Source of the DNA: Euryarchaeota archaeon UBA103
Lineage (GTDB): Archaea > Thermoplasmatota > Poseidoniia > Poseidoniales > Thalassarchaeaceae
Direction: 5' to 3'
DNA: 64,000 nt
Assembly: GCA_002506825.1 (NCBI GenBank)
Contig: DAYH01000023.1
Coordinates: 5,593 to 69,592, forward strand
In this document: positions 5,331 to 7,994 of the stretch, in pieces
How positions within the stretch are numbered: position 1 is the stretch's first letter
How the letters are laid out: every line of letters begins with the position of its first letter
Notes under the pieces: generated by a model
Databases searched by the model: none
What the model was told of the DNA's origin: nothing
What the model saw: the letters and a program-made list of their open reading frames with translations, nothing else
Position numbers and translations under genes: made by a program

Positions 5331-7994
5331 ATGACGGACAAAAGGACAATGGCAATTGGGATAGGGGTTCTGCTCTTGCTGGTTAATTTAGGACTGATAG
5401 TTACTGGTTTTGTCGATGGACAAATTGAGAGTACTGTAGAAGGTGCTGTTTCTGATGGGATGGACGGCTTGGACGAGAATAGGGAAGAAGACTATACCTA
5501 TGATTATGATGACGACTGGCTAAACGTCTCGTCTGAAAAGGCGTACTTTGCCAACTCGATCTCAAACCTTGAAGACGTACAAGCTAACGGGGCGGATCCT
5601 GCTTACGAAATGATTGGGCCTTTCATCTACTACGAGAACACTACACGTGAGATACTGGACTTCGATTACGAAGATGATACAGTAACATACACTGGTTACG
5701 AGATATACGAGTGGTGTGAGGACTGCACTTGGATGGATGATGAAGGCGTTGAGCATGCTTCCGTATCGGGAGATACCCTCACAAATCAAGTGAACATTCT
5801 TTGGAACACCCAGAGAGTAGCTGGAATGAATACCGGTATCGAGTATCTTGAGATTTTCGCCCAGGGCATGTTCGCGGCACAGATGATCGAGTTCGATCTC
5901 GCCAACAGGGCCCCTAGCATATGGGCATCCGAGGACATCAGCGCAATGATGACAGATACCGTGACTGGGGATGCGGCTCTAGCTGGCGCATATCTTGCAG
6001 CTGGAGGATCTAATGACATGGCCTCGGCTTTCCAAAATCTTGAGCAGTCAGTGATGTACGATGCAGTTGATCCATCCAATCCTGATACTTGCATCGCGCT
6101 AACCTGTGACATAGGCCCAGTCCTTGTGGCTGGAATGGGGGCTCCTGATGGCGGAGAAGTTACTCAGACAAGAGCCGCCCTATACGGATATGGCGATAGG
6201 AGCGAGCCAGAACTATCGGCAATTGACCTAGGGGTCTACGCCTTGGCCGCCAACACTTTCCTAGCCAGGGGAGGGGGCGACGAGATAAACAATGAGACCC
6301 CTCAGCTAAGAGAGAGGTTCCAAGAGGTAAGCGGAGTCAATATAATCAACCCAGATACACTAGATTTCCTTCTTTTCGATGATTTCAACGGACTACTAGG
6401 GACGTTCACACTCTCTGGCGTTACTCTTCCAGGGATGGTCGTAGGACTCCTGCTTCCACTTCAGAGCGGGGACTACTTCACCGCAATGGAGACGTACAAC
6501 GTCGGACTGCTTACGGTAGTAGACATCGCTGGCTATGCAGAGACATGGGTCGGTTTAGGCCTACTCGGATCACCGACTGAGTTCGAGAATATTCTCCTAG
6601 GAGGGCAGGGTACCCTGACCGCTGGAGAATGGTGGATGGGTGCTTTCGGAGGCCTAGACCCGCTAGCTGGAACCTATATCGAGGTGGGACTCAATATTGG
6701 AGATTATGTCGGGATGGCGGCACTAACCGCTGAGAAGGCTGACTTCATCCTTAATGATGAGAACATCGGACTGAAGACTACTTTCTCAAGAGAGTTCGTG
6801 TATGGTGAGCTAGCTGGAATGTCGCTTCCCGATGAGGATGGAGTTCAGTGGGTTTGGCATGATGCTTATGTTGCGAGTCTGTATGACATCGATGAGGACT
6901 CAGCGGGTGCCCTGAGATCGTGGGTTGGGGACTTCGTTTTCGAAGTTGTAATGCCTGTCCTCATTACCTTCCTCAGTGGTAACACCGAGTATTACTCGAT
7001 GCCGATAACGCATTGGCTGTTCGGCTTCAGTGATGCAGCAAGCGCATCCTTCGGATTCTTCCCATGGGTCAGCTTGGAGACCAATCTGACTTACTACGGT
7101 TCAGATGGAATAGGCACTGGCGACTTCTCAGCGTACAAGATGAGTACTGCTGGAGAGACCAAGGGTCAGAGGCTTGCGCAGGGGTACATCAACTCTGATG
7201 GAGATGGCCTGTGCGACTATGACTACGATTCAAGTGGCGTATTCATAGGGTACGACCTTCCCTGTGAAGAAGGTCAAGTATACGGCATGACCGAGCATCT
7301 AACTTGGAGAGCACCTCACAGAGAGGACGGTTCACTAGGTCTGCTTTCTGGCCACGCTGGGAATACAGACACATCGCTGATGGGAACCATTGGCGGCGTC
7401 TCCGCTCCACTGGCAAGTCCTAGTGACCCATTCTTAGTGAATGTCGCGGGATACGCTATTGCAACTTCTGAAGTCGGCGATGAAGTTGACTACAAAGGAA
7501 TCCCTATGGTAGAGCACAGAGTTAGCTTGGATCCAGCCAATACACAAATCCAAGGTAAAATCCTAGGGGCTGGAAATTGGGTGGATGCGCTCCCAGGGGC
7601 ATTGCCTGTTTACCTTGGTGCGGACATCGACATGAAAGTCGAGCCAATCTCTAATGCAGTTATGTACGGTAAGGTGAAAGTGACCTTCCACCTAGACATG
7701 AGAGGTACTGGTTCATTTGATCCTGTCATCGGAGTAGATACAATGCCAGTGTTCGAGATTCACACTTACAGCGAGATAGCTGATGAGGATGCTTCTGACT
7801 TCAATGCGCAAGTCACCGATAACATGGGGCCATTTGGGTGGACCAACTTCGGTGGCAGTAACGGCGGAATCCTTCTAGTGATTTCAGTCGTACAGGCTAT
7901 GTTCTACGTAATCGGAATCGGATTGATGGCATATGGCGGACTAGTCATGAAGGATGAAGACGAAGGATCCCTGATTGCGGAAGACGAGGAATAA
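5331..7994 (+). CDS. two-TM large-ectodomain protein with CD36/LIMP-2/SR-B-like motifs (candidate lipid-binding or transfer ectodomain)
   Basis: The track ORF starts at a GTG at 5322. The ATG at 5331 is better spaced from GAAGGAG (5314-5320). There are N- and C-terminal TM helices and a cytoplasmic acidic tail. Motifs read by eye are [24 protein letters not shown]..(ILDF)..[24 protein letters not shown] and [24 protein letters not shown]. They are colinear with CD36-family blocks. Confidence 0.5.
   Translation: [887 protein letters not shown]

Follow-up and report, generated by a model that had tools for sequence, protein, structure and literature searches.

The question raised by this locus is whether an archaeon can encode a genuine member of the CD36 / LIMP-2 / class B scavenger receptor family and, if so, what such a protein might do at the cell surface. 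The gene lies on the plus strand of a 64,000-nucleotide stretch of DNA (hereafter the window) from Euryarchaeota archaeon UBA103, of the order Poseidoniales (Marine Group II, MGII), corresponding to positions 5,593 to 69,592 of the forward strand of contig DAYH01000023.1 (GenBank assembly GCA_002506825.1). An earlier note, made by a model from the letters of the window alone, had called it an archaeal member of the CD36/LIMP-2/SR-B family with a large mid-domain expansion, and the PF01130 and fold matches obtained here support that core call. By family as well as by fold, we hold it highly probable that the product of this gene is a genuine, though very divergent, archaeal representative of the CD36 / class B scavenger receptor superfamily.

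The hmmscan search against PF01130 that the earlier note had proposed as a check returned this family (CD36) as the sole Pfam match of the protein, above the gathering threshold (E=3.4e-8, 32.9 bits against a cutoff of 26.5), the best stretch being amino acids (aa) 77-131 against profile positions 59-113. PF01130 was also matched by 18 of 19 diverse relatives, with MGII members scoring 29-68 bits, mostly over profile positions 2-133 and with a weaker second stretch, and a precomputed PF01130 tag is carried by most of the 120 close homologues listed, out of 527 in all. Searches of the MGII family against PDB sequences, by phmmer and by profile hmmsearch, gave no match, and neither did an NCBIfam scan of the protein, as that collection has no model for the family. 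The relationship is a remote one, and the link needs the Pfam hidden Markov model (HMM), an intermediate family or a comparison of folds.

To follow the comparison, the layout of the gene has to be given. The long plus-strand open reading frame (ORF) that ends at 7994 has two start options in the ORF listing, a GTG at 5322 and an ATG at 5331, and the ATG is preferred because the N-termini of homologues (MxxK...IAI) begin at the equivalent position. From this ATG the protein measures 887 aa, and not the 890 aa given earlier. Its parts are as follows.

5238..5330, plus strand: upstream intergenic region of 93 bp, with an A/T-rich, TATA-like ttatgtttag (~5289-5298) and, immediately ahead of the ATG, a GGAGG-like ribosome-binding site
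5331..7994, plus strand: complete ORF of the CD36-family two-pass membrane protein, 887 aa and stop
5331..5417, plus strand: cytoplasmic N-terminus (MTDKRT) and transmembrane (TM) helix 1 (aa ~7-29) by hydropathy; helix 4-44 in the AlphaFold (AF2) model
5418..5804, plus strand: N-terminal CD36 block (aa ~30-158), in which the barrel's first long beta-hairpins and the YFxNxxN...GPFxY motif lie
5805..6860, plus strand: apex insert (aa ~159-510), an all-alpha domain of ~350 aa, from the AF2 model and profile alignments
6861..7862, plus strand: C-terminal CD36 block (aa ~511-844), from hhalign, the Asgard HMM and Foldseek
7863..7934, plus strand: TM helix 2 (aa ~845-868) by hydropathy; helix 846-874 in the AF2 model
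7935..7994, plus strand: acidic cytoplasmic tail (aa 869-887, 19 residues) and stop

Colinear homology across both halves of the CD36 domain is present, and it is reached by way of a family of CD36 proteins from Asgard archaea. When the MGII and Asgard alignments were compared with hhalign, the N-terminal block matched at 98.8% (aa 6-158 against 33-166, E=8e-17) and the C-terminal block at 99.3% (aa 519-847 against 440-774, E=4.4e-20). The Asgard HMM also matches the window ORF directly, with 44-47 bits in two colinear domains (aa 13-131 and 756-831). In profile comparison with a canonical starfish CD36 the N-terminal block reached 95-96% probability, while the C-terminal block went undetected against this one animal sequence. 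All the motif pairs that had earlier been proposed between this protein and CD36/LIMP-2 were reproduced by the computed alignments, read transitively from MGII to Asgard to LIMP-2. The segment of the N-terminal block that contains TVTY is the best Pfam CD36 stretch and aligns to LIMP-2 through the Asgard profile; one further MGII segment aligns with Asgard EEWLFTANDT and another with Asgard YGIdLLRF, both continuing onward to LIMP-2, and a segment of the C-terminal block corresponds to Asgard vMPIlWlErSGEIPEelAeeFK and to VFPVMYLNESVHIDKETASRLK in LIMP-2.

The fold points the same way. A first AF2 model, built from a shallower input of 18 close homologues (61-98% identity), had a predicted local distance difference test score (pLDDT) of 31, was unusable and was replaced by one built on a 16-sequence alignment spanning 24-63% identity, with a mean pLDDT of 74.2 and a predicted template modelling score (pTM) of 0.68. 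The latter contains beta-hairpins at aa 65-128 (strands 65-77, 92-112 and 117-128), about 20 helices at aa 158-549 (pLDDT mostly 80-93), beta-strands at aa 554-815 and a helix at 818-838, after which TM helix 2 follows. A Foldseek search of the PDB with an AlphaFold model, also suggested in the earlier note, found CD36 and LIMP-2 as the only significant matches: the top 13 are CD36 (5lgd, E=7.7e-6) and twelve LIMP-2 chains, all with probability 1.00, E values from 7.7e-6 to 4.5e-3 and 311-373 columns of targets of ~320-400 residues. The next match is LmcA of Mycobacterium smegmatis (E 0.04-0.1), beyond which only noise was retrieved, and in a search of a viral structure library, used as a specificity control, nothing fell below E=0.3. 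Given the hhalign E values of the two blocks and the Foldseek probability of 1.00, the resemblance lies well outside what chance would produce. The ectodomain keeps both halves of the CD36 domain, and these are predicted to fold into an asymmetric beta-barrel of the CD36/LIMP-2 type with apex helices.

The arrangement proposed earlier, of an N-terminal TM helix, a large ectodomain, a C-terminal TM helix and an acidic tail, was found again by hydropathy and in the helices of the AF2 model. The TM1 region aligns with the N-terminal TM of the Asgard CD36 proteins, K/R residues lie on its N-terminal side, and the acidic C-terminus, often ...EE(E), is conserved throughout the MGII CD36-like family. 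The protein is a two-pass surface membrane protein with its N- and C-termini both in the cytoplasm. Its ectodomain, of ~815 aa, has 15.6% D+E against 3.3% K+R. The six Cys residues form sequence-local pairs (129/132, 254/259 and 628/645) and are all invariant in close homologues. As a separate observation, the ...EE(E) type of acidic C-terminus is common to several membrane-anchored proteins of the window, namely the CD36-like protein (7935-7991), a phospholipase D (PLD)-domain protein (11069-11077) and a 300-aa membrane protein (22811-23713, minus strand).

In the C-terminal block, the helices of aa 511-549 are the counterparts of the LIMP-2 apex helices VLTVIEWSQVHFLREIIEAMLKAY; a WLFGF(S/W)D motif follows at aa 562-568 (here WLFGFSD), the barrel strands run to ~844, and PGALPVY, VEP and PVFEIH...DEDA are further motifs of this block, which also carries a clade-specific Cys loop (aa ~620-652, with C628/C645). 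The ~400 extra middle residues counted in the earlier reading can be accounted for by the ~350-aa insert (aa ~159-510) together with smaller clade-specific loops, such as that at aa ~620-652. The insert sits at the base of the ligand-binding apex, where LIMP-2 has just ~10 residues before its apex helices, and includes a conserved CIALTC cysteine pair (C254/C259). It is modular, and the shortest family member (P0153) is without its first half. No homology of the insert was detectable to the Asgard insert (hhalign ~1%) or to that of a eukaryotic CD36 protein (P0213, 0.7% probability), and no relatives were found in Pfam or among PDB sequences. Moreover, aa 650-845, which align to the Cys-bearing part of LIMP-2, contain no Cys. 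Because it lacks the disulfide cysteines and has an ectodomain of ~815 aa with a ~350-aa insert, we place the protein within the superfamily and outside the animal subfamily (class B scavenger receptors sensu stricto).

This placement becomes clearer when the protein is set against known systems. With LIMP-2/SCARB2 and CD36 (PDB 4f7b, 4q4f, 5lgd) it has in common the two-TM hairpin topology with short cytoplasmic tails, the colinear N- and C-terminal CD36-domain blocks and a series of motifs (YFxNxTN...GPxxY, WL(F/W)G(W/Y)xD, G(I/L)P... and (V/I)xPxxxxxE...DE.A), and its predicted barrel fold retrieves exactly their structures. However, its ectodomain is twice as long, with the ~350-aa all-alpha insert before the apex helices, the animal disulfides are missing, identity is 9-13%, and its host is an archaeon in which it is predicted to sit at the cell surface rather than in the lysosome or the animal plasma membrane. 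Metazoan class B scavenger receptors sensu stricto have a compact ectodomain of ~400 aa, a three-helix apex and disulfides in the C-terminal half, and the MGII protein differs from them in all of these. A prokaryotic comparison is offered by LmcA (MSMEG_0317; PDB 7n3v, 7shw), which is, like the predicted MGII barrel, extracytoplasmic; it is an elongated beta-barrel with internal cavities and a structural relative of CD36 and LIMP-2 without the helix bundle (PMC8972800); it differs in its chains of ~250 aa, its lack of the apex helix bundle and its other mode of membrane anchoring. The LmcA / PF11271 (PorA, actinobacterial) family had no match in the window protein in the Pfam scan, and was seen below its cutoff of 29.5 only in other members (P0238 at 25 bits, P0153 at 17 bits).

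The bridge to the Asgard archaea came from an exhaustive search of 1.84 billion representatives with the MGII profile, which yielded 121 clusters only; the MGII family is a narrow one. Two outliers of this search, P0213 (223 bits) and P0238 (280 bits), are strong PF01130 proteins in which an insert of ~300 aa interrupts the CD36 domain at profile position ~134-144. The relatives of P0238 are 45 proteins of ~460-980 aa (most 780-900; P0266-P0308 are among them), and those that are named come from Promethearchaeota/Lokiarchaeota, Hermodarchaeota and Hodarchaeota metagenome-assembled genomes (MAGs), the weakest match being an animal CD36. Their contigs are archaeal, with ribosomal protein L16, radical-SAM enzymes, methylmalonyl-CoA mutase and an Arf-family GTPase as neighbours; CD36-family genes lie at L082 7001-9511 and at L083 2863-5310 and 5824-8526, tandem CD36 paralogues occur at some loci, and no conserved partner gene was found in two Asgard loci. 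A profile of 27 Asgard sequences gave E=2e-62 with LIMP-2 structures and 4e-57 with CD36, the alignment falling into two colinear pieces, with profile positions 52-159 on LIMP-2 chain positions 4-106 and 438-727 on 116-407; this two-piece alignment indicates that an Asgard insert of ~280 positions replaces ~10 residues just ahead of the LIMP-2 apex helices. The Asgard proteins resemble the MGII protein in being archaeal, in size (~780-900 aa), in two-TM topology and in carrying a large insert that divides the CD36 domain at the same point, but they are much nearer to eukaryotic CD36/LIMP-2 (280 bits to PF01130 against 29-68 bits for the MGII family), their inserts have no detectable homology to the MGII ones, and they include tandem paralogues, whereas in MGII neither the window nor the loci listed showed a second copy.

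The other outlier, P0213 (857 aa; L081 10001-12574), is the best non-MGII match of the MGII profile and a singleton, with no relatives found in the protein database. It is encoded on a eukaryote-type metagenomic contig next to a RING/SIS3 E3 ligase, a Ser/Thr kinase (Pkinase) and a Zip protein. Its CD36 domain (223 bits) is likewise split, at profile position ~134 and by ~300 aa; its eukaryotic-type neighbours and its insert, not detectably related to that of MGII, set it apart. As large inserts, none detectably related to another, are found at the same point in MGII, in Asgard archaea and in one eukaryotic protein, this site may be a hotspot of ligand-binding innovation.

Within the archaea, the gene is widespread in its own order. 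Relatives are encoded in at least 253 GTDB species genomes, and the 80 genomes listed are Poseidoniales, MGII or Thalassarchaeaceae MAGs, apart from two labelled as bacteria. One of these (L053, labelled Pedosphaera sp.) has an MGII CD36-like gene with MGII upstream synteny, and the other (L057, labelled Gemmatimonadetes bacterium) an MGII CD36-like gene with acyltransferase and M60 neighbours; both are probably mis-binned archaeal contigs. A scan with the Asgard HMM found no CD36-family paralogue in the window, and no second copy was present among the loci listed. In a rough neighbour-joining (NJ) tree on shared columns, for which few eukaryotes were sampled, MGII sequences form a monophyletic deep clade at a distance of 0.925 to both Asgard and eukaryotic sequences, nested in neither, the Asgard-eukaryote distance being smaller (0.81); so simple a method with so few eukaryotes cannot settle the direction of ancient events. 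The depth of this un-nested clade argues against contamination or recent transfer. The CD36-like gene is a core, vertically inherited Poseidoniales gene that forms its own deep clade.

The neighbouring genes, for which all counts rest on the 80 related loci listed, are these.

8057-11080, plus strand: 1007-aa protein with two Lamin-tail and two PLDc_2 domains, TSP3-like acidic repeats and a C-terminal TM
11077-12351, plus strand: thymidine/AMP-phosphorylase gene, its start overlapping the stop of the PLD gene
12348-13430, plus strand: Acyltransferase_3 (PF01757) / HGSNAT-like integral membrane acyltransferase
13415-17440, minus strand: 1341-aa secreted M60-like (enhancin-type) peptidase with He_PIG Ig-like domains, a neighbour in 40/80 loci

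The window is archaeal, as its genes for TFIIB, the PolD small subunit, HMG-CoA synthase and glycine cleavage attest, and by its sequence the intergenic region at 5238..5330 is the probable promoter of the CD36-like gene itself. The order that recurs in MGIIb is a minus-strand gene, the CD36-like gene, Acyltransferase_3 (45/80) and the M60 peptidase on the minus strand; subsets of loci have TctA-like (22/80) and OB-like (21/80) genes upstream, or Lamin-tail (LTD)-PLD (19/80) and thymidine/AMP-phosphorylase (16/80) genes downstream. Acyltransferase_3 is the most conserved co-directional neighbour, usually ~70-80 bp downstream where the PLD pair is absent; its adjacency is clade-limited, and it is absent from the more distant MGII clades, where the neighbours are unrelated and mostly on the opposite strand. 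No conserved operon partner was found over the MGII clades. With neighbours so variable, and mostly on the opposite strand in other clades, the gene looks monocistronic, and its context says little on function.

Two contextual arguments for a lipid function had been advanced earlier, and neither was borne out. The first, that a PLD-family enzyme is encoded immediately downstream, was rejected: this gene neighbours the CD36-like gene in only 19 of the 80 loci, and it comes coupled with a nucleoside phosphorylase. Its best NCBIfam similarities, all below cutoffs, are to the PLD-type nucleases NucT and DrmC, and its co-insertion and stop/start overlap with the phosphorylase suggest nucleotide salvage rather than lipid metabolism. 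From these sequence features, the pair more likely serves nucleotide scavenging, the PLD protein looking more like an extracellular PLD-type nuclease than a phospholipase. The second, a linkage to beta-oxidation genes in the window, was rejected as well, as the sole such gene found is an acyl-CoA dehydrogenase (57334-58518), ~50 kb off.

Further observations concern other parts of the window. A 792-aa ORF (18849-21227, plus strand) has no Pfam match, 25% D+E and 1.5% K+R, and a C-terminus, PGFGLISAISVLALAALTRRD, that resembles a PGF-CTERM archaeosortase sorting signal; it may be a major protein of the surface or of S-layer type. A 490-aa protein (27514-28986, minus strand) carries canonical EF-hand calcium-binding motifs (E ~1e-12). 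ARAGORN called a tRNA-Arg(CCG) of 89 nt (29347-29435, minus strand) inside the glycine-cleavage T-protein gene (29044-30192, minus strand, Pfam E=3e-68), and this call is probably a false positive.

What, then, would the protein do? The best explanation overall, and on balance a probable one, is that it is a CD36-family barrel with a helical apex module that acts in the transfer of lipids or other hydrophobic ligands. Taken by itself, by analogy with the family, transfer of this kind as the function is quite possible and falls somewhat short of probable. In CD36, SR-B1 and LIMP-2 the apex is the ligand-binding face, and the complexes among the Foldseek matches are consistent with this. The enlarged apex of the MGII protein would then capture a hydrophobic or amphipathic ligand, as in its eukaryotic relatives, candidates being free fatty acids, polar lipids and other lipids present in material derived from phytoplankton. 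From the apex the ligand would travel by way of the barrel cavity to the cell membrane, arriving at its outer face, and would supply the fatty-acid degradation pathway that every MGII genus has and perhaps also the synthesis of membrane lipids. Palmitate is held in the barrel cavity of CD36, and in LIMP-2 and LmcA the cavities are through-going (PMC8972800); fatty-acid degradation is encoded by all Poseidoniales genera, for which growth on straight-chain fatty acids and lipids has been proposed (PMC6461757). Lipid uptake would follow from family membership combined with this published catabolic potential of MGII for lipids and fatty acids (PMC6461757). Since the contextual arguments fail, we infer lipid transfer from homology alone.

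We acknowledge that several points weigh against this explanation. The Foldseek TM-scores are modest (0.35-0.41 on target), with a root-mean-square deviation of 7-10 A and an identity of 9-13%, so that superposition is not tight and the fold assignment rests on the specificity of the matches. The model derives from 16 sequences, and its pLDDT drops below 50 in barrel loops at aa 590-650, 688-692 and 830-850. In the aligned C-terminal half, the protein has none of the disulfides that its animal counterparts carry. As to the genomic context, it shows no lipid link and differs between clades, the PLD gene being adjacent in 19/80 loci only and tied to the nucleoside phosphorylase, and the acyl-CoA dehydrogenase being ~50 kb from the CD36-like gene. 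Lastly, the enlarged apex could equally serve in the binding of proteins or particles.

It is from this last point that the best surviving alternative arises, an unlikely one in our view, in which the protein is a CD36-fold surface receptor or adhesin that transports no lipid and whose apex binds some macromolecule instead, be it a surface component of particles or phytoplankton, a further protein of the cell surface or an enzyme that is secreted. LIMP-2 binds glucocerebrosidase, and CD36 binds thrombospondin and PfEMP1; in solved members the apex is the protein-binding site (going by the titles of 5lgd and 9fjf), and it is precisely in a 350-aa apex domain that the chief innovation of this protein lies. 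Poseidoniales have also been described as rich in adhesion functions, thrombospondin-like proteins included (PMC6461757), the CD36-like protein itself has a TSP3-like acidic loop, and genes for large secreted or anchored proteins, the M60 peptidase and the LTD-PLD protein, are nearby. On the other hand, no partner could be identified and no partner gene is conserved nearby, and the barrel is as strongly conserved over the order as the apex is, which suggests that the barrel has a function of its own. Binding and lipid transfer, besides, are not mutually exclusive in eukaryotes.

Alternatively, and this we consider quite improbable, the barrel might handle lipids in the outward direction, as an envelope-directed chaperone extracting or holding endogenous lipids or lipid-linked precursors, and act in envelope assembly or remodelling in a manner analogous to that proposed for LmcA and possibly coupled to the adjacent membrane acyltransferase. 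That LmcA, proposed to bind the lipid of a lipoglycan (PMC8972800), ranks directly behind the CD36 family among the structural matches would fit such a role, as would the Acyltransferase_3 (PF01757) gene lying co-directionally downstream in 45/80 loci and the unusual mixed membrane lipids predicted for MGII (PMC6461757, PMC7852524). The acyltransferase linkage, however, is missing in the more distant MGII clades, the sequence kinship is to the CD36 family and not to LmcA/PF11271, of which the window protein has no match, and nothing points to directionality.

Finally, that the CD36 resemblance is a coincidence, or the gene a eukaryotic contaminant or recent transfer, is very improbable and was rejected, for against the 9-13% identity to solved structures, the blank phmmer/hmmsearch of PDB sequences and the C-terminal block undetected against a single animal CD36 stand the agreement of independent lines (Pfam, both hhalign blocks, Foldseek and the Asgard HMM), the wide distribution, the archaeal character of the window (TFIIB, the PolD small subunit and neighbours of archaeal type), the synteny over many Poseidoniales MAGs (one of them a 1.6-Mb contig) and the deep monophyletic clade nested in neither eukaryotes nor Asgard archaea.

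The earlier description of the family as essentially eukaryotic agrees with how the literature treats CD36/SR-B, and a survey of the evolution of the CD36 domain covered 165 eukaryotic genomes and transcriptomes only (PMC10715195); it has to be qualified, however, as the MGII gene shows a deep, order-wide archaeal branch, much closer CD36 homologues exist in Asgard archaea, and the bacterial LmcA has the same barrel fold. Full-text searches of the literature turned up no account of CD36-family proteins from archaea, whether Poseidoniales, Asgard or others. Archaeal PF01130 matches can already be retrieved from database annotation, yet appear to have gone undiscussed. The protein is a genuine member of the superfamily outside the animal subfamily, with a novel apex domain, and brings a new domain of life to the family.

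To our knowledge, no lipid uptake route has been described for Poseidoniales, and a CD36-like barrel at the surface offers a concrete, testable candidate for one. These organisms are reported to be the most abundant planktonic archaea of the surface ocean. MGII and Lokiarchaeota are also the two groups of archaea for which membranes that are mixed or contain fatty acids have been proposed (PMC7852524), and MGII and Lokiarchaeota-type Asgards have been singled out for missing glycerol-1-phosphate dehydrogenase (G1PDH) and for bacterial-type fatty-acid and ester-lipid genes (PMC7852524, PMC6461757). The co-occurrence of CD36-family proteins in both of these G1PDH-lacking groups is a lead and not a result. 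A broader and decidedly speculative proposal, which we think unlikely, is that CD36-type lipid-tunnel receptors are an overlooked ancient archaeal family, from an Asgard gene of which eukaryotic CD36/SR-B/LIMP-2 arose, and that they persist in Poseidoniales and Lokiarchaeota-type Asgards, where they mediate both the acquisition of exogenous fatty-acid lipids and their insertion into the membrane. If this were true, the CD36 family would count as a 'eukaryotic signature protein' that has gone unrecognised and has ties to lipid trafficking and endolysosomal biology, and would provide a concrete molecular handle on the 'lipid divide' transition.

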